A stretch of DNA of 64,000 nt from an uncultured candidate division WWE3 bacterium (GTDB taxonomy: Bacteria; Patescibacteriota; WWE3; UBA101185; UBA10185): positions 465,519 to 529,518 of the forward strand of contig CAIRNR010000007.1 in assembly GCA_903879985.1 (NCBI GenBank). Direction: 5' to 3'. The translations under genes were made by a program, and so were the position numbers. Below the pieces are notes generated by a model, which ran no database searches, was not told the origin of the DNA, and saw only the letters and a list, made by a program, of their open reading frames with translations. Shown here in pieces: positions 5,664 through 64,000 of this stretch. How positions within the stretch are numbered: the stretch's first letter is position 1; each line of letters starts with the position of its first letter.

Positions 5664-7319
5664 TTATTCAACTTCTTCAACGGTAGCAACACTAACGCTC
5701 GCGATTTTCGTTTTAAATGGATTGAACTTGGTAACGAATCGATAAAACAATCTAATTTCATAAACATTTAAAAGCTTAGTAAATATAATATATGTGCTCA
5801 TACCGCAGATTCCAGCTATTCCTGTTAAAACTAACAAGTTAAGCGTTCTTGTAGTATCAAACACAATGTTATCCAAAAGTTTGATTGGGAAGTATAAGGT
5901 TACTCCCATCAATAATGTTGAATACGCAATTTTTATAAAAGGTACCAATAATTTTTTAGCATTAAATCCGCCTACTTTATTTCCTAGCAAATACATTTGA
6001 ACGACCATATCGATAATTGATGTTAATGAATAAGAAAAGGCTATAGACCAAACTTCTAGTTTGAAACCCAAAATGAAGATTAATGAAATCACCACGTTAA
6101 TGATTGCCGTAAAGATGCTGACTAAAACCGGAGTTTTGGTGTCTTTTAAAGCATAAAACGCGCGTGTAATTAAAAGGTTGGCACTTTGAGAAAATATGGA
6201 AATACTAAAAAAGGCCAATGCGTAAGATGTTTTTAAAGTAGCTTCCCAAGGAAAATTTGAAACACCGTATACAAGTCTTACCACCGGAATACGTAGAATT
6301 AACAAGATCATACCTAAAGGCATAACCAAAAACATCATTTGATGCAAGGAAGTTAAAAATGTTTCTTTAAACTTTTCGGAATTTTCCTTGTCACTTAGTG
6401 CAGCAAGTGTAGGTAAACTTGCGGAAGCAATTGAAATACCAAATAAATTAACCGGAAATGATTCAAGCTGTGTGGCGAACTTTAAAAATATTACGGAAGG
6501 AGCCGAAACTATAATAGCCAAACTGTTATTTATTGTATCTACGGTATTTGCTAAGAAAACGTTGAGTATTCTTGGAGGAATTAGTGTGGCCACATTTCGT
6601 ACGCCTTTGTCTTTTAAGTTAAGGTTTGGCCAGAACTTAAATCCTGTTTTTGGTAAGGCCGGTAACTGAATGCAAAAGTGTAATATTGCGCCAATCACCA
6701 CACCGTATGCCGGTCCGTAAATACCAAAAATTGGTGATAGCACGACAATTCCGATAATCATTCCTACGTTGTACAAAAGTGGCGCGAGCGCTGGAAGCAA
6801 GAATATTTTAAAACTTTGCAAAATACTGGTAACTAAACTACCTGCTACCAATATTAATTGAGCTGCTAACATTATTCGCATCAAGTTTGATCCTAAGTTT
6901 ATTTCAGCCTCGGTAAACTTTCCAACAGACAACATACGGATAATCCAGGGTGAAATGGCAAATACCACACTGCCTAAGATCAAAAAGAACGTAAGTGTTG
7001 CTGTCATAATAGAGGATGCCGTTTTAAAAGCCTCATCTTTGTTGTGTTTTAAAATACTGGCAAATACAGGTATAAATACTGTGGAAATAGCGCCAACTAC
7101 GAGTACTGAGTAGATTAAGTAAGGAATTCGATCGGCTGTGTAGAATATTGCTAGATCGTTAGATACGCCAAAATACTGGGCCAAAAAACGGCCTTTTAAA
7201 AAGCCTAAACCGGCATTTAATCCCGCCGTTACAGCAAGAATAAAAGCAGCAGATAGTATAGTATTTTGAGTATTAAGTAAGAAGCTTCCGATTTTTAGAT
7301 TTTTGATATCAAACTTCAT
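5664..7319 (-). CDS. murJ: Lipid II flippase MurJ/MviN
   Basis: 551 aa with about 14 TM helices and a MurJ-type N-terminus. Confidence 0.85.
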   Translation of the reverse strand: MKFDIKNLKIGSFLLNTQNTILSAAFILAVTAGLNAGLGFLKGRFLAQYFGVSNDLAIFYTADRIPYLIYSVLVVGAISTVFIPVFASILKHNKDEAFKTASSIMTATLTFFLILGSVVFAISPWIIRMLSVGKFTEAEINLGSNLMRIMLAAQLILVAGSLVTSILQSFKIFLLPALAPLLYNVGMIIGIVVLSPIFGIYGPAYGVVIGAILHFCIQLPALPKTGFKFWPNLNLKDKGVRNVATLIPPRILNVFLANTVDTINNSLAIIVSAPSVIFLKFATQLESFPVNLFGISIASASLPTLAALSDKENSEKFKETFLTSLHQMMFLVMPLGMILLILRIPVVRLVYGVSNFPWEATLKTSYALAFFSISIFSQSANLLITRAFYALKDTKTPVLVSIFTAIINVVISLIFILGFKLEVWSIAFSYSLTSIIDMVVQMYLLGNKVGGFNAKKLLVPFIKIAYSTLLMGVTLYFPIKLLDNIVFDTTRTLNLLVLTGIAGICGMSTYIIFTKLLNVYEIRLFYRFVTKFNPFKTKIASVSVATVEEVE

Positions 7320-7382
7320 GTATATCTTTTATGACAGAATTAGTTGAATTTGTCTGTAAGTATGTTATCATACAAAGCGCTT

Positions 7383-7682
7383 ATGCCAAACAGAAGATCT
7401 ACAAAAAAATCATTAAGAAGTGCCGCACGAAAGCAATTGCACAATTTGTCTTGGAAACGTCGCTACAAGAGTGCCGTAAAAGACTTAAAAGAAACACTTG
7501 CTCTTAAAGATGCCACTCCAGTTGTATTAAACGAAAAGCTTACTTTAGTTCAAAAATTAGTGGATAAAGCAGTTAAAGAAAAAGTCATTCATAAAAACAA
7601 AGCAAATAGAGTAAAATCTACATATGCTAAAAAGATTACTGCTCAATCTAAGAAGCCTACTAAAGCTAAAGCTACCGCTTAA
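7383..7682 (+). CDS. rpsT: 30S ribosomal protein bS20
   Basis: MPNRRSTKKSLRSAARKQ... with VIHKNKANRVKSTYAKKI matching the S20 LVHKNAASRYKS motif. Start is at the internal Met, preceded by a TGtTATCAT -10 (leaderless-type). Confidence 0.85.
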   Translation: MPNRRSTKKSLRSAARKQLHNLSWKRRYKSAVKDLKETLALKDATPVVLNEKLTLVQKLVDKAVKEKVIHKNKANRVKSTYAKKITAQSKKPTKAKATA

Positions 7683-8250
7683 CACTGAACCCACCGCGGA
7701 CTCCGTACCCTTTGGCGTTAGTTCCGATATTTCATCCAACCTTTTACCTGATGCTGCAAATGTCTCTTTATCAGAGCAAGGTCGAACTAAAAACGTTAAA
7801 ATCTTCCAAACTGTTGTTATAGTTTTGTGCAGTATTTTCACTTTTTTACTTGCAATTAACTTTGGGCTTGATTTGGCGCTATCTTCTTTACAGGGCAGAC
7901 AAAATTACCTGGTAGCCACTTATGAACCTCTTATTCCTACAAAGCAAAATCTCCTAGATATACAAAACCGCACATCTTTTTATAAAGGCATTATTTTAAA
8001 ACGAAGTGCTTTGGCCGATAAAGTTACATGTGTAACCTCGGTAATTCCCCAAGAGCTAACGGTAAAATCTTACGACGTAAAAACTGCAGGATTTTCTATT
8101 GTCCTTGATGGAGAAAAAACTATTTATTTCACTAAATTATTGCTGGGATATTTAAATAATACACAGATTAGTGCTGTTACTTTGCAAAGTGCCGTTTACG
8201 ATACCTCTACAAGTACATTTAGAGTTACTGTTGGAGGGACTTTTAAATGA
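7624..8250 (+). CDS. Bitopic membrane protein, PilN-like (pilus alignment-subcomplex-like), hypothetical
   Basis: 208 aa: a short N-terminus, one TM (VVIVLCSIFTFLLAINFGL), then an extracytoplasmic domain. The stop overlaps the next start (ATGA). The 5' end overlaps the rpsT 3' end by 59 nt; there is no in-frame ATG/GTG/TTG between the rpsT stop and the TM segment, so either ATG 7624 is used (overlapping rpsT) or a rare initiation codon is. Confidence 0.4.
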   Translation: MLKRLLLNLRSLLKLKLPLNTEPTADSVPFGVSSDISSNLLPDAANVSLSEQGRTKNVKIFQTVVIVLCSIFTFLLAINFGLDLALSSLQGRQNYLVATYEPLIPTKQNLLDIQNRTSFYKGIILKRSALADKVTCVTSVIPQELTVKSYDVKTAGFSIVLDGEKTIYFTKLLLGYLNNTQISAVTLQSAVYDTSTSTFRVTVGGTFK

Positions 8251-8804
8251 TGACTCAGCTAAATAAGATTTTTAATAATAGCGTCCTTGTAGAACAAATT
8301 AATTTAGTTTTTATGCTTTGTACTTTTGTACTCCTTGGCGTATTTGGAATATGGGGAATATTTCCTATCTTGATAAATAAGGTAGTGCTTATTAGAGATA
8401 TGACGCAAAACAATAATTTGGTTGAAGCTAATGTGGCTACATTAACAGCTGCAAAAACCACGATAGATGCAAATACTGATCTAATAAACAATTTGTATCA
8501 ATCAGCGTCAAATGATTTAAATACACAGAATTATTTGGTGGATTTTTTTGACGTTGCTTCTAAATCCGGTTTTAAAGTAACTAAATTTGTTACCGTGCCT
8601 GTTGAAAACTCCGGCAGTGTTGAAATAAATGCGGAAACCGTTGGAGATGGTGATATTGGCGGATTTATACAACGCTTGGAAAAGTTAACTAGAATTACTT
8701 ATGTAGAGGCTGTTACTTTTTCAAACGATATAAACAATAAACACATAACAACTAAAGTTCGTATATTTAATTATTCAGAAACTCCTGGAGTGGTAACACA
8801 ATGA
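8247..8804 (+). CDS. Bitopic membrane protein, PilO-like, hypothetical
   Basis: 185 aa with an N-terminal TM, a coiled-coil segment and a C-terminal globular domain. It is translationally coupled on both sides. Confidence 0.4.
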   Translation: MMTQLNKIFNNSVLVEQINLVFMLCTFVLLGVFGIWGIFPILINKVVLIRDMTQNNNLVEANVATLTAAKTTIDANTDLINNLYQSASNDLNTQNYLVDFFDVASKSGFKVTKFVTVPVENSGSVEINAETVGDGDIGGFIQRLEKLTRITYVEAVTFSNDINNKHITTKVRIFNYSETPGVVTQ

Positions 8805-8989
8805 AACGATTATTTGTATTAATTGGCGTAGTTGCTTTTGTTTGCTTGCTTTGGGTAATGTCTGGTTTTTGGCGTTTTGACAAGAAAAATTATTTAAATA
8901 ATAAAGTACTTGACATGGCTAGTCCTATAAATGGTAGTATTGACACAGAGTTATTTAAAAGTTTAGTTCCTGCCTATGAACAACAGTAA
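8801..8989 (+). CDS. Small membrane protein (62 aa)
   Basis: N-terminal TM helix; ATGA overlap with the upstream gene and a 14-nt overlap with the downstream gene. Confidence 0.35.
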   Translation: MKRLFVLIGVVAFVCLLWVMSGFWRFDKKNYLNNKVLDMASPINGSIDTELFKSLVPAYEQQ

Positions 8990-9506
8990 TGTAGCAAAAA
9001 ATGGTTTTAAAACCTTCATACTCACTCTCTCGGTATCGTTAATCGTGTTTAGTACGATATATTACATCGTTACTTCCCGCGGAGGATCCGATAAGTTTGA
9101 GGCTTCCACTTCTCAAGTTTCATATGCCGCTCCAGAAGTAACACCAAGTATTGCTCCAACAACCGAACCAGTAGCCGATGCAACCAAAGCAGCCGTTAAA
9201 GGTGCTTCAACAGTTGCCGCAGCTGTTACGCCAACACCAGCTCCAACTGCTTCTACATTTGGTCAATTAGCAGATGCAAAAGTTGTAGCCAAACCTCAAA
9301 TCGCTAAAGGTACTGTTTTAGCCGGTGCCACAGTAAATACCAAACAGACAACTCAAAGTACCAGTCCAAATACTGGTGTTGTTGAAATTACAGCAGGATT
9401 ATTTATATCTCTTGCCTTGTTCTTAGTTGGATTCTACGTAGTATTCTTGAATCCACGAAAAATGGCTTTGATGGATTTCGAAAAATCCGTTATCAAGAAG
9501 CTTTAA
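8976..9506 (+). CDS. A/T/P-rich surface protein with pilin-like N-terminal helix and C-terminal sorting-signal-like tail
   Basis: 176 aa. N-terminus reads KNGFKTFILTLSVSLIVFSTIYY, followed by a low-complexity Ala/Thr/Pro/Val region. The C-terminus reads SPNTG-VVEITAGLFISLALFLVGFYVVFL-NPRK (motif, hydrophobic stretch, basic tail). Confidence 0.5.
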   Translation: MNNSNVAKNGFKTFILTLSVSLIVFSTIYYIVTSRGGSDKFEASTSQVSYAAPEVTPSIAPTTEPVADATKAAVKGASTVAAAVTPTPAPTASTFGQLADAKVVAKPQIAKGTVLAGATVNTKQTTQSTSPNTGVVEITAGLFISLALFLVGFYVVFLNPRKMALMDFEKSVIKKL

Positions 9507-9562
9507 GATTCTAATCTCCACCAATATCTCAGCGTCGTCTCTATTTAGTTTATTCCGTTGTA

Positions 9563-10285
9563 TTACTTCTCGAGCGTTGCTCTTACCAATAACCTTTTTT
9601 GTCTTGTACCAGCTGGCCAGCATGTCATGAGTGTAACAGTGGATTCATTTAGATAATCAGGTTTAAACTCTGCCAAAGGATCTACTGTCACAGGATCTAC
9701 AACTTCTTTAAACTCCACTTTGTAAGTTAACTTATTGTTATTGTAATAAATATAAAATTCATCCCCAGTATCTAAATCTCCAAGCGTGGAAAAAATTGTC
9801 TTATAATTTTTAGGATTAAAAAAGAATGGTAAAACAGAATGGCCGTATATAAAGGTGTTACCTTTTTCTCCTGGAAGAGCCGACCCTATGTAGTGGCCAA
9901 TAGCTGTATCAGGATCTAAATTCGCTGGATTAGTTTCTACAATTCCCTTATCTATTTTTAATTTTGGAATCTGAATGTAAAAGTATTTTGGTACGTTAAC
10001 CTGGGTGTCTTGAGTCTTTTTCTCCCCACTAAGTTCTTTATATTCAAAGTCTGAATATCCTGTGGCAACTCCAAGAACACTCCCGCGCATTGGTTCAGCT
10101 ACATCATCTTGTGTTTTGAAAAATACTAGCGGCATTACAACTTGTGTGCCCAAAACCAAAAAGCCTAAAGCCATTAAGCCTCCGGATAATATTCTAGATT
10201 TAAAGAAGAACCCGTAATTTACGGAATGATAGATAGGATCAAAAGATTCATTTTTTAAGTAAACTTTTTTTCCAGCGTAAGGCAT
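9563..10285 (-). CDS. Sortase family transpeptidase
   Basis: 240 aa with an N-terminal TM anchor, the catalytic triad context FIYGHS (His), TLMTCWP (TLXTC Cys) and RLLVRA (Arg), and an IPKLKID beta-strand. Confidence 0.8.
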   Translation of the reverse strand: MPYAGKKVYLKNESFDPIYHSVNYGFFFKSRILSGGLMALGFLVLGTQVVMPLVFFKTQDDVAEPMRGSVLGVATGYSDFEYKELSGEKKTQDTQVNVPKYFYIQIPKLKIDKGIVETNPANLDPDTAIGHYIGSALPGEKGNTFIYGHSVLPFFFNPKNYKTIFSTLGDLDTGDEFYIYYNNNKLTYKVEFKEVVDPVTVDPLAEFKPDYLNESTVTLMTCWPAGTRQKRLLVRATLEK

Positions 10286-10287
10286 TG

Positions 10288-10986
10288 TTAAGAGTTTAGC
10301 ATTTTTTCTACGGCAAGGGTAAGCATTGTATCGTCAGTAATTTCTCCGGTTTTTACGGCTTTATCTATTTTTTGCATTTCCACAAACATGCTTTTTACTT
10401 GCTCCTCCGTGTATAGCTTCGCAATTTTTTCAGTTTTCATTTTTGCAAAAGGATTCATTTTCGCGCTTGAGGGTGATTGAAATTTAATTGCTGCTAAATT
10501 GCGTAAGCCATAAAGTATGCGATTAAAGATTTCAAACGGGTCTGTGGAGTTCAAAACCTTATCTAATTCTATGTATGCTTTGGTGCGTTGCTTACTAAAT
10601 AAAGCATCCACAAAGTCAAAAACTTTCCCCTCAATTACTTTTTCGTTTACAACTTCCTTAGCCTTAAGTTCTTTAGCGTTTTTAATGAAAATATTGGCCC
10701 TGGAGAGACTTTTATTAGATAGGATGACTATGTTTGCCTCCGCCGGTGCATTTAGTAATTTTTCAAGATGTTTATCCAAATTACTGCGTGCTGCATTTGA
10801 GACATCTATGACCACGTATGGAAAGTTTCCAAAGATATCGGTTGTATTAAGAATATGTACAAGGTGTTCTGGAGTTGTATCTGTTATATCAAGTTCTATT
10901 CGTGAATCCGCGCCAAGCTTTTTTTGTTGGTGCAATATAAGTGTTCGAGATTTTGCGATATCTTCACCATGGACTATGTAAATCAT
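10288..10986 (-). CDS. holA: DNA polymerase III delta subunit (HolA)-like, short form
   Basis: 232 aa. An N-terminal IYIVHGEDIA..FGNFPYVVI (clamp-loader AAA-like) and a C-terminal helical domain fit the HolA pattern. Confidence 0.5.
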   Translation of the reverse strand: MIYIVHGEDIAKSRTLILHQQKKLGADSRIELDITDTTPEHLVHILNTTDIFGNFPYVVIDVSNAARSNLDKHLEKLLNAPAEANIVILSNKSLSRANIFIKNAKELKAKEVVNEKVIEGKVFDFVDALFSKQRTKAYIELDKVLNSTDPFEIFNRILYGLRNLAAIKFQSPSSAKMNPFAKMKTEKIAKLYTEEQVKSMFVEMQKIDKAVKTGEITDDTMLTLAVEKMLNS

Positions 10987-12855: not shown

Positions 12856-13737
12856 TTAGGCGAGCCTCTTTAGCGATTCTTCAATCAAACTTGGTAAGAG
12901 TTCGATATCTTCGTGAGTATAATCATAACCCAAAACGTTGAGACACGAAAAGACAATTCCTAAATCAGAATAGATTTTGTCGGCATATTGGCATGCGACC
13001 AAACTGTGAAGTAAAACATTTCCGCCAATTTCTCCAACTTTAGATTTTCCACAACCCATTGGACAGTTTGCGCACGATGGATAGGATGCTTCAAGCACAC
13101 TGACATCTTCCTTTCGTATCAAAATACTTTTGTATAACTGTTGGTATTTATCGAAATTTACGGGTTTAGCAATTTCTGTTCCCGTTATAACAATGCCTTT
13201 TAGTTTTTTTGCGCGTAATTCGTGTTCAAAATAATCTTCAGGTGTTGTGAAGTAACCATTTAAGCTGACTTTTGTTCTTATGCCGTCTTCAAGAAAGATA
13301 TCGCCCCGTTTTCCCGGCAGACCCAAAGATAAAATATCTGTAATGCCGTCTTTAAATACCACATTTGTATTTTGAATATCCAGTATAACTTCCTGTTCTG
13401 ATTTTCCGTAAATAACAATGGCATCAAGTCCTGCGTATTTTATGCGTAAAGACAGATTACCGCCGATATAAATATCTTCTATTACGCCATCGTTGTTTAA
13501 GACAATTGAAGTTTTTGAAGCGTAAGGAAAAAATCCGTTGAATGGTCCTACCGATAAAACAATTGGTTCTTTATCAAAATGTGATTCCATTAACTTTAGT
13601 CCCAGTCCTACGCCGCCGATGTATTTGTTAAATTCCTTATACGTTTTGGCAACCGCGGTTTGGTCAGTTAAGTTTATTTCTAAAACTTTTTTAGCTGTTA
13701 AATCCACTTGTTTCTCCGTTATCCTCAACCAACTCAA
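12856..13737 (-). CDS. Truncated aldehyde:ferredoxin oxidoreductase (AOR)-family protein: AOR N-domain plus start of domain 2 with a CxxCxxxC motif
   Basis: 293 aa. MSWLRI..VDLT / IGGVGLGLKLM / PIVLSVGPFNG / LRIKYAGLDAIVIYGKSEQEVILDI aligns to the AOR N-terminal domain ([23 protein letters not shown]). CANCPMGCGKS matches the AOR [4Fe-4S] ligand motif CYACPIGCGR. The protein ends about 300 aa before a full AOR would. Confidence 0.6.
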   Translation of the reverse strand: MSWLRITEKQVDLTAKKVLEINLTDQTAVAKTYKEFNKYIGGVGLGLKLMESHFDKEPIVLSVGPFNGFFPYASKTSIVLNNDGVIEDIYIGGNLSLRIKYAGLDAIVIYGKSEQEVILDIQNTNVVFKDGITDILSLGLPGKRGDIFLEDGIRTKVSLNGYFTTPEDYFEHELRAKKLKGIVITGTEIAKPVNFDKYQQLYKSILIRKEDVSVLEASYPSCANCPMGCGKSKVGEIGGNVLLHSLVACQYADKIYSDLGIVFSCLNVLGYDYTHEDIELLPSLIEESLKRLA

Positions 13738-13984
13738 ATACTGCTCTTGGACAAATATTTTTTACTTTTTCTATATCCAGGGAACTTATACGTGGGTCTA
13801 TTTCTATTCCAAATTCTAAGTATTCTGATTTTTCTTTTCGTTTTCTAAAAATTCTGATTGGTGCGCCTTCAAGACCTACTTTTTTAAGTTGACGTTGTGT
13901 TTCAAGAACACAAAGCTCACAACCTATGCAGTTTTCCATGTAAGTAGCTTTTAGGATCTTAGTCATTTTTTGATAAAGCCTCAA
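13691..13984 (-). CDS. Small ferredoxin-like protein (single 4Fe-4S motif)
   Basis: CIGCELC ... CP arrangement. It overlaps pgk at the 5' end and the AOR-like gene at the 3' end; a start at the internal Met (about 13939) would remove the pgk overlap. Confidence 0.4.
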   Translation of the reverse strand: MRLYQKMTKILKATYMENCIGCELCVLETQRQLKKVGLEGAPIRIFRKRKEKSEYLEFGIEIDPRISSLDIEKVKNICPRAVFELVEDNGETSGFNS

Positions 13985-54460: not shown

Positions 54461-56764
54461 TTATTCAGTAAGAAATTCGGCATTAATGATTTTAAGCTTT
54501 TTTGTCCAATGATTTTGTGCGTTTATACAAATAACCTCTGTTTTGGTATCTTCTAAATTTTCATAAATATCTTCCGATTTATATGAAATTCGAAAAATCC
54601 CGTCACGGGAAATTGTAAATGGTTCTGAGTATTGTTGCCAATCTTCATTATTAATTTTATAAAATATATTCTTTATTTCGGTGTTTTCAGGATCGATAAC
54701 TGTAAGTGTGATTGTTGGCCAATTCGTGTACCAAACATCGTTTTTAGTTCCTAGCACTTCAATAGAAGTTTCCGGAGGATTTGAATCTATTCTATTTCCC
54801 GTTACGGCAAAATGTGAAAAATGATTTGTAAATGCAGTTATCGTGAGGCTAGTTGTATCAAAAATCGAATCCAACGAAATCCACTTTTGTTGTGCCTCGT
54901 CGAAGTAAATAATTTTCAAGCTCGCGCGTAGAATATTTTTTAGATCTTCTTCCGAAAGATTTATTGTAATTTTCACTTGATCCGTAAAAGTTCCGACTTT
55001 ATTTTTTAGATAATCAAAAGCTTGAATTACAAATGCTGTGTTAGAAATATATTTTAGTGTTGGTTCTATGGGAGGTATATCGTTTTTTAAAATTATCGTT
55101 AATGGGTTATCCACTTGATTCAACGTTACCTCTTTATTTTCCAATTTTACCTTTGTGTTTGGTTCAATCGTTTGTGTAATTCCCGTCATGGGAAATTTCC
55201 ATAAATATTGGCTATACGCCCCGTGATGAATTCCTGAGGTATCTGTCCAAATAAAGTTAGCCCAGGGATCTACATATTCTGTGCTTTGCCAACCATACGG
55301 ATCTATGCGTCCGTCAGGAAAGACTCCTTTCGAAACTTCAAAATGCAAATGTGGCCCCGACGTGTTACCGGTCATTCCAACTTTACCTATTGTATCGCCT
55401 TCTTCTACAATAACTGGTCCTGTTGAATTTGTGGCAATTAAACTGTTACCTTGCAAATGTTCATAAATTGTCTGTAGGCCGTTAAGATGTTGTATCTTTA
55501 TCGTGTTTCCACAGGCGTCACAATAATAGTATGATGCAGTTCCGGCTGCTGCCGCCTTTACTGGCGTTCCGTAGTCGAGATCATAATCGTATCCGCTGTG
55601 AGAACTGTAATAAATGTTTGGCGGCTTATCTTTTTCGCCTAAATAATTCACAACGCTTTGATTTTCGTTGGAAGGTTCAGCAAATAATGTGTACCCAAGT
55701 AGCGGGTATTTATGGTCGAATACAGAAGTTATTCTATCTAAAACCTCACTTTCATTGGTGTAACCCCAAGGAATGTTCAAAAATTGATTTGTATTTACCT
55801 GTTTTGGAATTTCTCGCCGATAAAGTCCTCCAGATCTTGTAGCTGCAAAAATATACGGTTTGCTTGAATAAACCCAGGCACTATCTACTACTGACGCAAA
55901 TGATGGAGCTTCTAGTCCTGTATCTGTCCATGTTTCTCCCAAGTCGTCACTTTCATAAACTGTGTTATATAAGTTGTCGGTATTTATTTTTGACGCAAAA
56001 ATTCTATTATCGAAAATAGTAATAGCCCCTGCAGTCGCTAGTCCAAAAGTTGATATCCAATTCCATGTAGCACCACTATCGTAGGAAATGTACATTTCGC
56101 TTGTATTGTTTGGCTCTGCAATGGCGTATTTATCATCAATATAGTAGAAATTAAAAAAACTTTCTGTTAATTCCTTAACCGGTGTCCATGTTGTACCGTG
56201 ATCAATGCTTTTATATGTTTGATTGTTTATGTCTGCCAGTGCCAAATTGTTTGAACTTACTATATTCTTTACGCTCCAGCATTCGGTTGTTTTTTGAGTC
56301 CAGTTTTGACCATTATCTTGGCTTATCCACAAACCTTGTAAATATGATCCCAGATAAATATTGTTCCCATCGCATGCCACTGTTAAAGCAGGTAGGTTTG
56401 GTCCTAGATGCTCCCAGGTGAGTCCTTTGTCACTAGAGCTAAACAAACCTGCTCCCTCACCCAAATCAAGAAAACTTGTTGCATATAGTTTCAGGTTACA
56501 TGATTTGATATCCGTGATTAGTCCGCCTTCAAGTCCGCTTTTTTGCCAAGTTACGCCAAAGTCTTTTGAAACAAAAATTCCGTTATAGGGTTGTTGCCAA
56601 AACATATAATTATTTTCTCCGGCATAAAGCCCAAAAATCGTGCTTTCGATTGTAGATATTTCCGTAGATGGGAAGTTTAACTTTTCCCACGCTTGTGCAT
56701 GGGCATATTTTGTAGCCATTACGATTAAGACTAAATATACAATCACTTTTTTAACCCCCGGCAT
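54461..56764 (-). CDS. Secreted BNR/Asp-box beta-propeller protein fused to an M23 (LytM-type) peptidase
   Basis: Signal peptide, then six S-x-D-x-G-x-T-W repeats (SKDFGVTW, SSDKGLTW, SQDNGQNW, SIDHGTTW, SYDSGATW, SDDLGETW). M23 motifs HSGYDYD and GPHLHFEV follow, then a C-terminal beta-rich region of about 250 aa. Confidence 0.8.
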   Translation of the reverse strand: MPGVKKVIVYLVLIVMATKYAHAQAWEKLNFPSTEISTIESTIFGLYAGENNYMFWQQPYNGIFVSKDFGVTWQKSGLEGGLITDIKSCNLKLYATSFLDLGEGAGLFSSSDKGLTWEHLGPNLPALTVACDGNNIYLGSYLQGLWISQDNGQNWTQKTTECWSVKNIVSSNNLALADINNQTYKSIDHGTTWTPVKELTESFFNFYYIDDKYAIAEPNNTSEMYISYDSGATWNWISTFGLATAGAITIFDNRIFASKINTDNLYNTVYESDDLGETWTDTGLEAPSFASVVDSAWVYSSKPYIFAATRSGGLYRREIPKQVNTNQFLNIPWGYTNESEVLDRITSVFDHKYPLLGYTLFAEPSNENQSVVNYLGEKDKPPNIYYSSHSGYDYDLDYGTPVKAAAAGTASYYYCDACGNTIKIQHLNGLQTIYEHLQGNSLIATNSTGPVIVEEGDTIGKVGMTGNTSGPHLHFEVSKGVFPDGRIDPYGWQSTEYVDPWANFIWTDTSGIHHGAYSQYLWKFPMTGITQTIEPNTKVKLENKEVTLNQVDNPLTIILKNDIPPIEPTLKYISNTAFVIQAFDYLKNKVGTFTDQVKITINLSEEDLKNILRASLKIIYFDEAQQKWISLDSIFDTTSLTITAFTNHFSHFAVTGNRIDSNPPETSIEVLGTKNDVWYTNWPTITLTVIDPENTEIKNIFYKINNEDWQQYSEPFTISRDGIFRISYKSEDIYENLEDTKTEVICINAQNHWTKKLKIINAEFLTE

Positions 56765-58176: not shown

Positions 58177-58469
58177 TCCGGAAGTCTTGACTTTACCCAT
58201 TTATATTGATATTAATACAACACTAGTGTAATATCACTTGTCGTACGTTGATAACTAAATAGTTAAGAGCAAAAAAGCACAAATCTTTTTAAATCGCTTT
58301 AGCCGGCGATGTACAAAAGATACAATTTATTGCCACGTCCCAAGTGGTAGTAAATAAAATTGCCATAGCCAATATGGCGACTTTCAATTCGCAAGAATCG
58401 AAAGGCAAGAAGAATCGACCAAACCAAAACGTTTATACGCTATTGACGCATTAATAAACGTTTTTTTCT

Positions 58470-59906
<1,437 letters not shown>

Positions 59907-60310
59907 CTAAGGGAGAAAATCCGTATTTTTGATTGAAGGACCATTGATCTAGTACTTGCTATTAGGAAATGCCTTTGAAATATAAAGTACACTCAACATT
60001 GGATTAGCTCTAAAATGTTGTTTTAATTAGCTGTCGTCAAAACGCCTTTAGACAGCAGAGTAGGTTTTAAAGCGAGCCTAAACTTTTACAACCGGAAGAT
60101 CCTTCTTGCCTTTTGGCACTTGAAATTGAAATTTGTGTAATTAACTCTTAACTTGAATTTAGAAAAAAGCATCCTTAATTGGATGCTTTTTTTTTGAGCT
60201 TTAGCGAGAAAAACGTCAGCAGACATTTTGTGGCTATTATTGAAAACCAGCTGTTCTGGTGGTATAAACTTATTCTTGATACAAAAATCTATGTGAGGAG
60301 GAGAGCGATA

Positions 60311-60943
60311 ATGGAAAAAAACAATTTGCCTGTAGACGAAGCAGCTGGTTTGGTAACGAGAATAATAGAGCAGATAAAAGGAGCAAAGGGCGCGGCTTTC
60401 ACGTATGGAAATATCCGGAAATACCAGGCGCAAGCGGGTATTGGCCACACCGGCGCAAAATTCAATCGAACCGAATGGGAATGTGCGTGGCGGACAGTGT
60501 TGGATATGCCTGATATTAAAATCCTGTGCGGTAGCGGTCTTCACGCCAGTGTTTATTACTTACCTGGGGCTAAGGATGCTACCAAAAATGGTAAAAATGG
60601 CAAAATTATCCAACCGGCTGTTGATATGACTCCGGTTATCGAGGCTCAACCCCCAGCCGCTAAGCAAGAATCAGCGCCTACGGTTGCAGTTCCTGCACGT
60701 CGCCCATTGGTTGAAAAAAGGCAGCCCACGGTTAAAACCAAACGTGCGGTGGTAACAAAGAAAGATCATGTAATCCTGTCCGGCGTGCAAGTAACGTGGG
60801 AAGGCACCATTCCTCTGACGCTGTCGCTGGAAAAAGGACAAACAATCCAGGTGGAGCAGCACAATAGAGATGGGGAAAGTCTTGGCATGTTTACACTAAA
60901 TGGTCCATGCACGATTACTCTGAAAAAAGTTATCCGGGAATAA
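60311..60943 (+). CDS. Hypothetical protein, GC-rich (about 50%) gene lying between 16S and 23S
   Basis: 210 aa from the Met preceded by a GAGGAGG SD, with a terminator downstream. I recognise no family. Confidence 0.5.
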   Translation: MEKNNLPVDEAAGLVTRIIEQIKGAKGAAFTYGNIRKYQAQAGIGHTGAKFNRTEWECAWRTVLDMPDIKILCGSGLHASVYYLPGAKDATKNGKNGKIIQPAVDMTPVIEAQPPAAKQESAPTVAVPARRPLVEKRQPTVKTKRAVVTKKDHVILSGVQVTWEGTIPLTLSLEKGQTIQVEQHNRDGESLGMFTLNGPCTITLKKVIRE

Positions 60944-60969
60944 TTTAAAATCTGGTTAACAATCAATAG

Positions 60970-61008
60970 GCGGTCGCTTGTTTTAATAACATCCGGCCGC
61001 TTTTTTTT
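60970..61008 (+). terminator. Intrinsic terminator
   Basis: gcggtcg...cggccgc stem followed by tttttttt. Confidence 0.5.
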
Positions 61009-61021
61009 GTGTTTGGGTAAA

Positions 61022-61098
<77 letters not shown>

Positions 61099-61158
61099 TC
61101 ACCCGTGAATAGTACGTGCATGATAACATAAAACTAGGGTCGATGGTATACTGGTGGC

Positions 61159-61800
61159 ATGAAATCAGGCAAGCACTATGCTCTAAATTTCTTAATTGTT
61201 GCGTTATTATTAGTGGCTTTTTACTTGTGGTTTAACCAATCGTTAAAACAACAAACCCTAAAGAATTATTCCAAATACAAAATACAGGAAGCGTTGTTTA
61301 CCGCAGATTGCACGATTGCCGTAAAAATAAAGGATGAAACTTTGTCCCTAAAAACAGGTTATCAAGATCTTGGAATTTCATGTTTAGATCCAAAATTTAT
61401 CGTTAAAATTTCTCCTTCCGGGAAATATTTGGCTCATGTTGATATAGCAGGTAGTGCACCACAATTGCGTACATTTTTTACAGAGAAAACTAAATATCCT
61501 ACTTCCGATGTTTTCCTAACCTTTCCACCAGATACCGATTACGACTTTTCCTTACTGCCGGGCGATAAATTGGCTGTTTTGACTAGAGCTACAGCAACTA
61601 TTCCCGCTAAACTTACGGTTTACGATTTACCCTTAAGTTATAAAAATTATCCCAATGTGTTTAATACTCAAACAATTGTTCAAGAGCAGAATTTTCCTAA
61701 ATCAGCTAGCACCTACTGGTATGTTGAAACTGTCGACAAAACGAGTATAAGAATATTAGATAAAAACAAAGTCCCACTTGCCCAAATAAAACTAAACTAA
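61159..61800 (+). CDS. Signal-anchored hypothetical protein
   Basis: 213 aa with an N-terminal TM (ALNFLIVALLLVAFYLWF). Confidence 0.45.
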   Translation: MKSGKHYALNFLIVALLLVAFYLWFNQSLKQQTLKNYSKYKIQEALFTADCTIAVKIKDETLSLKTGYQDLGISCLDPKFIVKISPSGKYLAHVDIAGSAPQLRTFFTEKTKYPTSDVFLTFPPDTDYDFSLLPGDKLAVLTRATATIPAKLTVYDLPLSYKNYPNVFNTQTIVQEQNFPKSASTYWYVETVDKTSIRILDKNKVPLAQIKLN

Positions 61801-61801
61801 T

Positions 61802-62806
61802 ATGAATAAAAAAGTAAATCCTAGAATAGTTACTGTCGGTGGAGGTACCGGTACTTTTGTTGTTTTATCCGGACTCAAAGATTATCCCCTAAATTTGTCA
61901 TCTATTGTTACTATGATGGACTCTGGTGGGTCTACGGGTAGATTACGTGATCAGTTGGGTGTTTTACCGCCTGGTGACTTGCGACAAGCCTTGGTAGCGC
62001 TGTCAGATTCAAAAGAGATATGGCGCAAGCTTTTTACTTATCGTTTTGAGAGTGGTGACTTAAAAGGTCACAACTTTGGAAACATTTTTATTTCAGCTTT
62101 AGAAAAAATAACTGGTTCAACTGCAGAGGCTATTAATTTGGCAACCGAAATTCTGCAAACAAAAGGAAATGTTTATCCTGTGACACTTTCAAATTGCACA
62201 TTGTGTGCCGGCTATGCAGATGGTTCCGTGGTTGAAGGTGAATCTAACATTGAAGAAATAGTTAAAGAGGGAAATAAGATTACACGCATGTACTTAACTC
62301 CCTCCGCTGTAATGAATTTGGAGGCTAAAAAAGAGCTGGAAAACGCCGATTTCATCATATTTGGCCCTGGTGACCTGTACACAAGTATTATTCCAAATCT
62401 ACTGGTCGAAGGCATGCCAGAAGTTTTGGCTTATTCCAGGGCAAAAAAGATTTTTATATTAAATGTTATGACTCGGTATGGACAGACCGATGGTTTTAAA
62501 TCTACAGATTTTATTTTCGAACTGGAAAGATATTTAGGAGGTATTTCATTAGATTATATTTTCATTAACGAAACTCGCCCAAGTCAGGAGGTTTTAGACT
62601 GGTATAGAGAGGTAGATAAGGCTCATTTTGTAGAAGATACAACTTTTGGAGGCTATTTTGACAATAGAAAGATACTAAGAGGTGATTTTTTGTCCAAAAA
62701 TAGGGTCGTTCAAGCGGCAAACGATCATGTAAAAAGGAGCCTAATTCGGCATGATCCAGACAAGATAGCAGAGGCTATTTATAAGCTTGTTGACAGAGAA
62801 TTTTAA
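61802..62806 (+). CDS. YvcK/CofD-family (UPF0052, gluconeogenesis-factor-like) protein
   Basis: IVTVGGGTGTFVVLSGLK, MMDSGGSTGRLRD, LPPGDLRQALVAL. Confidence 0.8.
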   Translation: MNKKVNPRIVTVGGGTGTFVVLSGLKDYPLNLSSIVTMMDSGGSTGRLRDQLGVLPPGDLRQALVALSDSKEIWRKLFTYRFESGDLKGHNFGNIFISALEKITGSTAEAINLATEILQTKGNVYPVTLSNCTLCAGYADGSVVEGESNIEEIVKEGNKITRMYLTPSAVMNLEAKKELENADFIIFGPGDLYTSIIPNLLVEGMPEVLAYSRAKKIFILNVMTRYGQTDGFKSTDFIFELERYLGGISLDYIFINETRPSQEVLDWYREVDKAHFVEDTTFGGYFDNRKILRGDFLSKNRVVQAANDHVKRSLIRHDPDKIAEAIYKLVDREF

Positions 62807-62991
62807 TAATGGTACATATGTATTTACCTTTTAGGAATTCAACTTCCTCAGGACTTAGGTCCATTTCTTGGAGTCACAAAACTTCAAGGAAGCTCTGAAT
62901 ATCCAAGTCAAACGTGAAATATAAATAAGTTAGTAAATGCGCCTTGATGTATAAGCTTAGTGCTGATAGACTGTGTAAGCTTTATGCGTCG

Positions 62992-63068
62992 GGGCCGTTA
63001 GCTCAGTTGGCTAGAGCGCTACATTTGCAATGTAGAGGTCAGGAGTTCGATTCTCCTACGGTCCACCA
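62992..63068 (+). tRNA. tRNA-Ala (anticodon UGC), CCA encoded
   Basis: GGGCCGT-TA-GCTC-AGTTGGCTA-GAGC-G-CTACA-TTTGCAA-TGTAG-AGGTC-AGGAG-TTCGATT-CTCCT-ACGGTCC-A-CCA, including the G3:U70 Ala identity pair. Confidence 0.85.
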
Positions 63069-63404
63069 AAAAGGTTTCGATTTTTTGTTTTGAAAACGCA
63101 CTCGCAAAGCTCGCGAAGTTTTCTTCAACAAAAAATCTACGCCACTGTGTTAATGCAGGTTAGTGAAAAATGCTTTGTTTAAGATTCCGTACGGTGAGGT
63201 TTAAATACTTTGCCATACGAAACTTTAAACAAAGTTGCGATACATCGCAGCTCAAAGTTTCGACTACGTCGAAGCTTTGCCGCTCGCTATGCTCGCAGCA
63301 AAGTGGATCTTTGAAAACTGAACAGAAAGTATCCAACAATTGAAAAACTCACAAACTTGAGGATCATCTCCCAGCCTTGGCGAGATGGTCTGTAGGTTTT
63401 TTAG

Positions 63405-64000
<596 letters not shown>

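Follow-up and report, generated by a model that had tools for sequence, protein, structure and literature searches.

An rpsT-coupled pilN-pilO-type gene pair with two family-less membrane partners in WWE3 bacteria, a candidate relocated platform module for type IV pili

PilN and PilO of type IV pilus machines are defined by a common layout, namely a cytoplasmic N-terminus, one transmembrane (TM) helix, a coiled coil and two alpha-beta-beta motifs, and PilM binds a conserved N-terminal motif of PilN (PMC5805733). In Saccharibacteria TM7x, pilM, pilN and pilO are kept together in pilus loci (PMC11623550), and sortases, LPXTG-type proteins and type IV pili with pilT have all been reported from WWE3 genomes (PMC3812714). 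Type IV pili are considered central to the way in which members of the candidate phyla radiation (CPR)/Patescibacteria live as episymbionts and take up DNA. Little is known of how the pilus machine is assembled and kept in place in a monoderm wall. Here we describe a string of genes in a stretch of 64,000 nucleotides (nt) (contig CAIRNR010000007.1, assembly GCA_903879985.1; hereafter “the window”) from a WWE3/Katanobacteria (CPR) bacterium, an organism of the epibiotic monoderm type that had been anticipated from the letters alone. The string consists of rpsT, four open reading frames for membrane proteins (orf1 to orf4) and a convergent sortase gene. As in the type IVa PilM-PilN-PilO systems of P. 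aeruginosa, M. xanthus, T. thermophilus and TM7x, a pilN-type gene (orf1) is followed by a pilO-type gene (orf2) with overlapping stop and start codons, and the 4-nt overlap reproduces the canonical pilN-pilO order. The interpretation that we favour, with a probability of roughly 55%, is that the string holds a pilN-pilO platform module for type IV pili that has been relocated and coupled to rpsT, together with two lineage-specific membrane partners. The features that carry this interpretation are as follows.

7624..8250, plus strand: orf1 (208 amino acids, aa), PilN-type bitopic membrane protein, assigned from profile, fold and gene context
7738..7749, plus strand: NLLP motif, orf1 residues 39-42, putative counterpart of the PilM-docking motif of PilN
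8247..8804, plus strand: orf2 (185 aa), PilO-type bitopic membrane protein, assigned from Pfam PilO matches within its family and profile matches to the PDB

An exhaustive phmmer run against a library of 1.8 billion proteins collected orf1 homologues in 104 cluster representatives; word-indexed searches with orf1 and orf2 returned self-hits only. The AlphaFold model of orf1, built on an alignment with 81 of these 104 representatives (pLDDT 87.6), comprises a long helix that spans the TM segment and the coiled coil, then another helix, a pair of strands, a helix and a second pair of strands. The PilN fold, that is, a TM helix, a coiled coil and a core of two alpha-beta-beta motifs, is thus present in the model, and it is preceded by a cytoplasmic N-terminus of ~58 aa. 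Pfam PilN (PF05137) matches 6 of the 81 family members (best E 6e-6), and the solved structures closest to orf1 and orf2 are those of PilN and PilO. The profiles of orf1 and orf2 align with each other over 147 columns (hhalign E 8e-5), as is expected because PilN and PilO are a paralogue pair. The decisive evidence comes from gene context. P0118, a protein that matches the orf1 family with E 3e-4, is encoded directly 3′ of a PilM_2 gene in the locus L039, with a PilO-like gene after it, at the end of an operon that holds several pilins reading GFTLIELL as well as pilB, pilT, pilC and pilD. There is thus a gradual transition from the orf1 family to bona fide operonic PilN, and fold and gene context place orf1 in the PilN family. 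Direct sequence searches of the PDB with the orf1 profiles and with this operonic PilN returned coiled-coil noise only.

The N-terminal motif of PilN has the consensus INLLP. P0118 begins MNNTGINLLPPKK and carries GINLLP at its N-terminus, and most members of the orf1 family have an internal motif of the [S/G]PNLL type ~20 residues before the membrane helix, which reads SSNLLPD in the window. This NLLP-type motif of orf1 is a candidate for the docking of PilM. Unlike canonical PilN, orf1 has a longer N-terminus with an additional motif, M-L-E-K-x-L-P, found in most family members. pilM is absent from the surroundings of orf1, both in the window and at every WWE3-type locus; only the distant family member in L039 has one beside it.

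With a profile of the orf2 family, the top two matches in the PDB are the PilO proteins of M. xanthus (3jc8, E 1.2e-4) and P. aeruginosa (2rjz, E 6e-3), and Pfam PilO (PF04350) matches 14 of 26 orf2-family members (best E 1.8e-6). The homologues in L036, L040 and L041 match PF04350 as well. The window orf2 has one TM helix, and the PilO profile covers its residues 61-173. These profile matches assign orf2 to the PilO family, for which a coiled coil and a double alpha-beta-beta core are predicted besides the single membrane helix. An earlier reading of the sequence alone (hereafter the sequence-only reading) had proposed that the first two products are PilN/PilO-like bitopic proteins, and profile, fold and gene context now bear this out.

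In the window the pair is embedded in a longer string of genes.

7383..7682, plus strand: rpsT (ribosomal protein S20; Pfam Ribosomal_S20p E 3.8e-15), head of the coupled gene string
8801..8989, plus strand: orf3 (62 aa), single-TM protein with a conserved external motif, kept in all loci
8976..9506, plus strand: orf4 (176 aa), predicted two-TM hairpin protein (21 homologues aligned; AF2 model)
9563..10285, minus strand: membrane-anchored sortase (240 aa) with a TLMTC site (Pfam Sortase E 4e-23)

ATGA overlaps join orf1 to orf2 (8247-8250) and orf2 to orf3 (8801-8804), and orf3 and orf4 share 14 nt (8976-8989), so that both the list of open reading frames and the DNA itself agree with the translational coupling of the four genes that had been read earlier. 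The coupled unit begins further upstream than was supposed. ATG 7624 is the only start that gives orf1 its cytoplasmic N-terminus, no further in-frame ATG, GTG or TTG being present upstream of the membrane helix, and it lies 59 nt inside the 3′ end of rpsT. Because the orf1 start lies inside rpsT, and because rpsT and orf1 overlap in every related locus, rpsT is the true first gene of a coupled unit rpsT-orf1-orf2-orf3-orf4. The start of rpsT at 7383 (MPNRRSTKK) was picked by eye; gene callers gave 7362 or 7383. This coupling to a ribosomal protein gene suggests constitutive expression at a housekeeping level. The convergent sortase gene, also recognized earlier from its TLXTC site, ends 56 nt from orf4 (9507-9562) and opens a string of its own, sortase-holA-LCP-tpiA. 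In public gene calls, orf1 to orf4 are all “hypothetical” and carry no Pfam family, and NCBIfam has no family for any of the four. No RNA element of Rfam was found in the region, and promoter and terminator scans of 7200-10400 performed no better than shuffles.

When species-representative genomes were scanned with the orf4 family, 25 loci in different species were identified, including one in the complete genome CP006914; those with a taxon label belong to candidate division WWE3, to the “Patescibacteria group” or to mislabelled “Saccharibacteria” metagenome-assembled genomes. According to HMM-based annotation, the order MurJ(-), rpsT, orf1-orf4, sortase(-), holA(-), LCP(-) is the same at all 25, and the gene order is also unchanged in metagenome contigs whose orf1 is only ~25% identical; the arrangement of four genes plus sortase, whose conservation had been put forward as a check, thus recurs in related genomes. 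The 4-nt orf1/orf2 overlap is present in most loci, and an orf3/orf4 overlap of ~10-19 nt is conserved. Since gene order and overlaps recur across loci, orf1 to orf4 are real, co-inherited genes. An out-of-frame rpsT/orf1 overlap of 44-158 nt occurs in 29 of the 29 loci that carry both genes (e.g., L010 4683-4741), so that the conserved N-terminus of orf1 (MLEKxLP) is read from within the 3′ end of the gene for S20. A dual-coding stretch of this length is unusual; it is conserved, and it links a pilus-platform gene with one for a ribosomal protein.

The two genes that follow orf2 encode small, unrelated membrane proteins, unlike the type IVa operons, in which pilP and pilQ would stand at this place. 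orf3 has no Pfam or NCBIfam family match, and its external motif, LD..P..v.ID.EF...L.PAYE, is conserved in all loci. In the 2.2-kb contig L036, a 216-aa PilO homologue (738-1388) lacks the orf3 TM helix and ends in the C-terminal motif of orf3 (TIDLDFIRSL...PAYE), which is either a genuine fusion of orf2 and orf3 or the result of misassembly in this contig. This one short contig faintly hints at a contact between orf2 and orf3, and orf3 is probably a lineage-specific partner of orf2. Both orf3 and orf4 are always co-inherited with orf1 and orf2, even in L038, where MurJ-rpsT-orf1-4 are kept (6177-9535) and a Fic-like 435-aa gene, leuS and mutL/mutS then replace sortase-holA-LCP.

orf4 has no Pfam or NCBIfam family. 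Its sequence begins with a short, basic, Gly-ended leader, MNNSNVAKNG, followed by the hydrophobic helix FKTFILTLSVSLIVF (the segment ...NG-FKTFILTLSVSL...), continues through a middle region rich in Ala, Thr and Pro, and ends in SPNTG, a hydrophobic stretch and NPRK. An alignment of 21 homologues from the database, together with the locus copies, places its conserved regions in TM1 (GFKTFILTLSVSLIVFS.IYY), in the loop motifs VFG.LA and VLAG, in TTQST..xPxTG before TM2 and in the tail (NPRK.AL..FEK..LK). TM1 and the tail are the best conserved of these, which fits a resident membrane subunit. In the AF2 model, helices span residues 4-34, 94-99, 134-158 and 160-175, no beta sheet is formed and the remainder is disordered; residues 35-133 are disordered apart from the six-residue helix, with no globular head domain. 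We regard orf4 as a predicted two-helix hairpin with a disordered external loop and a conserved cytoplasmic helix. A type IV pilin was considered for orf4 and rejected: the +5 residue is Ile, not Glu, with Lys at +2, neither the window copy nor any of the 21 homologues matches N_methyl (PF07963), and the globular alpha-beta head of pilins is missing. The sequence-only reading had taken this product to be pilin-like and had proposed a comparison of its structure with pilin folds; the helices and disorder of the model answer against it.

The C-terminal part of orf4 holds the elements by which it resembles a sortase substrate.

9363..9377, plus strand: SPNTG pentapeptide directly before TM2 of orf4, sorting-signal-like
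9450..9503, plus strand: C-terminal cytoplasmic tail of orf4, NPRKMALMDFEKSVIKKL, predicted to be helical

The layout is VVEITAGLFISLALFLVGFYVVFL-NPRK, a hydrophobic stretch and then basic residues, so that orf4 shares a pentapeptide, a hydrophobic segment and a basic end beside a sortase with known sorting signals (LPXTG; (S/P)PXTG of C. difficile SrtB). Among 46 distinct orf4 homologues, the majority read VP[EDAQST]TG. Unlike in sorting signals, Pro and Thr vary within the family, and the tail that follows TM2 is 18 aa long and strongly conserved, with P160, R161, A164, F168 and E169 invariant, which is atypical of a sorting-signal peptide that is discarded. Also unlike sortase substrates, orf4 has an N-terminus that resembles a permanent TM helix rather than a cleaved signal peptide, and it has no folded passenger domain. 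Pfam Gram_pos_anchor matches neither 10 VPxTG homologues (E<=10) nor the window orf4 (E<=1). The sortase itself has a catalytic H149, C222 and R231 that are invariant in 24 sequences, and it passes TIGR01076; the class models A-F all score far under their cut-offs (best class C, 75.6 vs 160 bits; E, D and F lower), and since the enzyme fits no defined class, its specificity cannot be inferred from class. In the divergent relative L037 (7529-10692), three extra genes lie between orf3 and the sortase and encode a Cys-rich protein (201 aa), a PKD protein (652 aa) and an FN3 protein (199 aa). The PKD protein ends in DKTETG, a TM helix and KSGRK, and the FN3 protein ends in TPETG, a TM helix and KLLKN; by these tails both look like genuine substrates of the same sortase family, which would then tolerate a second position other than Pro, because the PKD protein ends in KTETG. 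These tails, from one locus, are the best available clue to the recognition motif of this sortase family. A scan of all open reading frames in the window for sorting-signal proteins identified orf4 only, and among all the loci retrieved only the two proteins of L037 were identified.

From these observations a model can be drawn in which the module encodes the PilN/PilO-type “alignment platform” of a type IV (or DNA-uptake) pilus machine in WWE3/Katanobacteria and has moved away from pilM, pilB, pilC and pilD into a housekeeping neighbourhood. orf1 and orf2 would pair via their coiled coils and core domains, and the cytoplasmic NLLP-type motif of orf1 would dock an actin-like PilM encoded elsewhere, which would link the PilB/PilT/PilC motor to the envelope. 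orf3 and orf4 would be lineage-specific subunits of the PilN/PilO complex. The loop of orf4 may bind the PilN-PilO pair, as the disordered region of the lipoprotein PilP does in diderms; like PilP, orf4 (and orf3) is placed after pilO, and orf4 is membrane-anchored and appears to have a long disordered external segment with short conserved motifs. Unlike PilP, orf4 shows no sequence or fold similarity to it and has neither a lipobox nor a beta-domain, and a secretin that it could bind is missing; a functional parallel between the two is speculation by analogy. The sortase would be a conserved neighbour in a separate, convergent transcription unit that most likely serves other surface proteins, and the xPxTG tail of orf4 would be a relic or look-alike of the lineage's sorting signal, dispensable for orf4 function. 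The module differs from type IVa PilMNO in that orf1 and orf2, which share the defining PilN/PilO layout (orf1 with its NLLP-type motif), stand without pilM in cis in an rpsT-led operon far from pilus genes. It also differs from the GspL/GspM pairs of type II secretion (EpsL/EpsM, XcpY/XcpZ, PulL/PulM), since orf1 is missing the large cytoplasmic actin-like domain of GspL, neither secretin, GspE/F nor pseudopilins are found near orf1-4, and the host is a monoderm CPR bacterium.

Several observations weigh against this model. The window orf1 has no direct Pfam match, and the window orf2 matches PF04350 under the cut-off (E 0.012, 16.2 bits, against 22 bits). In the gene and Pfam tables of the whole 64-kb window there is no pilM, pilB, pilC, pilD or pilT, in agreement with the earlier remark that PilM, PilB and PilD are absent nearby, and the ~6-10 kb around each related locus are likewise free of pilM and other pilus genes. 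The docking of PilM, the PilN-PilO pairing and the contacts of orf3 and orf4 are steps that we infer. If the pilus loci of WWE3 had a pilN and pilO of their own, orf1 and orf2 would be paralogues with another job. Lastly, the combination of xPxTG, TM helix and basic tail in orf4 is too conserved for chance, and the tail matches those of the L037 surface proteins beside the sortase.

This last point leads to a different, tentative explanation of orf4, in which a PilN/PilO platform is again assumed and the adjoining sortase cleaves orf4 after the Thr of (V/S)PxTG and joins its loop to peptidoglycan; TM1 would stay in the membrane, giving a covalent membrane-to-wall tether, a monoderm stand-in for the PilP-PilQ connection. 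It is consistent with the layout of xPxTG, ~24 hydrophobic residues and PRK that is kept in most of the 46 homologues, with the PKD and FN3 proteins of L037, of which the latter aligns with the orf4 profile in the C-terminal half of that profile (E 1.4e-7), with a weak Gram_pos_anchor match of the orf4 in L040 (E 0.023), and with the proven use of SPxTG as a sortase motif by C. difficile (PMC4155245). A sortase also adjoins the operon in all 25 genome loci and in L006-L008, L036, L037 and L041. However, the sortase gene belongs to a convergent operon within a long-range synteny block that also takes in holA, LepA, HrcA-GrpE-DnaK and glycolysis genes, and its adjacency is weak evidence for a functional link because the whole neighbourhood is syntenic; L038 is the only contig that extends past orf4 without an adjoining sortase, and its orf4 reads VPNGG where others have xPxTG. 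Furthermore, at least five lineages have Gly in place of Thr (VPDGG, VPNGG, TPEGG) and ~12 of the 46 homologues have Leu or Ile in place of Pro, their sortases keeping the catalytic triad, and five invariant residues in an 18-aa tail would be unexpected if that tail were discarded. Of the sorting signal claimed for orf4 by the sequence-only reading, the SPNTG-type tail is real, conserved and like the tails of the L037 surface proteins; the variable Pro and Thr, the long conserved tail, the lack of a Gram_pos_anchor match and the sortase-less L038 tell against its being a working signal, and it is doubtful that orf4 is really processed by the sortase. It is tempting, at still longer odds, to imagine orf4 as a sortase-processed tether with a pilin-like head, its helix in the PilN/PilO/PilC platform and its loop covalently on peptidoglycan. 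The unclassified sortase would then recognise a relaxed x-x-[E/D/x]-T-G signal, and the conserved C-terminal peptide that it releases might itself be functional. If true, an element that anchors a monoderm type IV pilus machine to the wall would be described for the first time, and sortases and type IV pili would be linked in function for the first time. Processing of orf4 by a sortase, if it took place, would connect two envelope systems that have been held to be independent.

Two further explanations leave the ordinary pilus machine aside. The pair of PilN/PilO fold may have been recruited to a non-pilus envelope process, for example wall synthesis, surface-protein display or division, as a partner of MurJ, sortase and LCP from the same neighbourhood, the true pilus machine having its own PilN and PilO. 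The invariant neighbours are indeed MurJ, sortase and LytR-CpsA-Psr rather than pilus genes, the fold is common to GspL/GspM of type II secretion, the N-terminal extension of orf1 (MLEKxLP) is conserved and foreign to canonical PilN, and the L037 operon has surface-protein genes inserted. Nevertheless, recruitment is improbable: a block as long as this, with holA, glycolysis genes, LepA and HrcA-GrpE-DnaK, carries little functional signal, the NLLP-type motif for PilM docking is still present in orf1, whose family passes gradually into operonic PilN, and we know of no wall-synthesis or division system that uses PilN/PilO proteins. The sequence-only reading itself had suggested that the locus may be a distinct surface filament or adhesin module rather than a standard type IV pilus locus; in a sortase-dependent module of this kind, orf4 would be a pilin-like subunit. 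The short basic leader of orf4, which ends in Gly-Phe (G10 and F11 at least 90% conserved) before a hydrophobic helix, and its sorting-signal-like tail beside a sortase are what such a module would offer. This explanation is already largely refuted and very unlikely, since orf4 has the wrong residues at +2 and +5 and no N_methyl match, nothing is folded between its two helices in the AF2 model, the true pilins of a related organism (L039) read GFTLIELLVV, the sortase scores under the cut-off of class C (pilus) and orf4 has neither a pilin-motif Lys nor isopeptide domains. A relocated ordinary pilus part is favoured over a separate filament module because a relative of orf1 is the pilN of a canonical, pilM-containing operon. 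A divisome role of the FtsL/DivIC type was also considered and rejected; a single DivIC match (E 0.011) among the family members scanned was all that had pointed to it.

If the relocated-module model holds, the PilN/PilO genes of WWE3/Katanobacteria have been split from the other pilus genes and chained translationally to rpsT. The assignments also fill an annotation gap, and the family-less orf3 and orf4 become concrete candidates for lineage-specific platform subunits.

The window contains other features of note. At 54461-56764 (minus strand) it encodes a 767-aa protein with BNR/Sortilin-type repeats and an M23 peptidase domain, in which no sorting-signal-like tail was detected and which may be a surface enzyme or one that attacks host walls. 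The rRNA operon at 58466-64000 is interrupted, since 3.5 kb separate the 16S gene (58466-59906) from the 23S gene (from 63409); this interval holds a tRNA-Ile on the other strand (61028-61104), a family-less 213-aa open reading frame (61159-61800), a CofD-like gene (61802-62806) and a tRNA-Ala (62992-63068). In the glycolytic string, an AFOR_N-domain protein and a small ferredoxin-like open reading frame (12856-13984, minus strand) stand between tpiA and pgk, an insertion that is conserved across the WWE3 loci.

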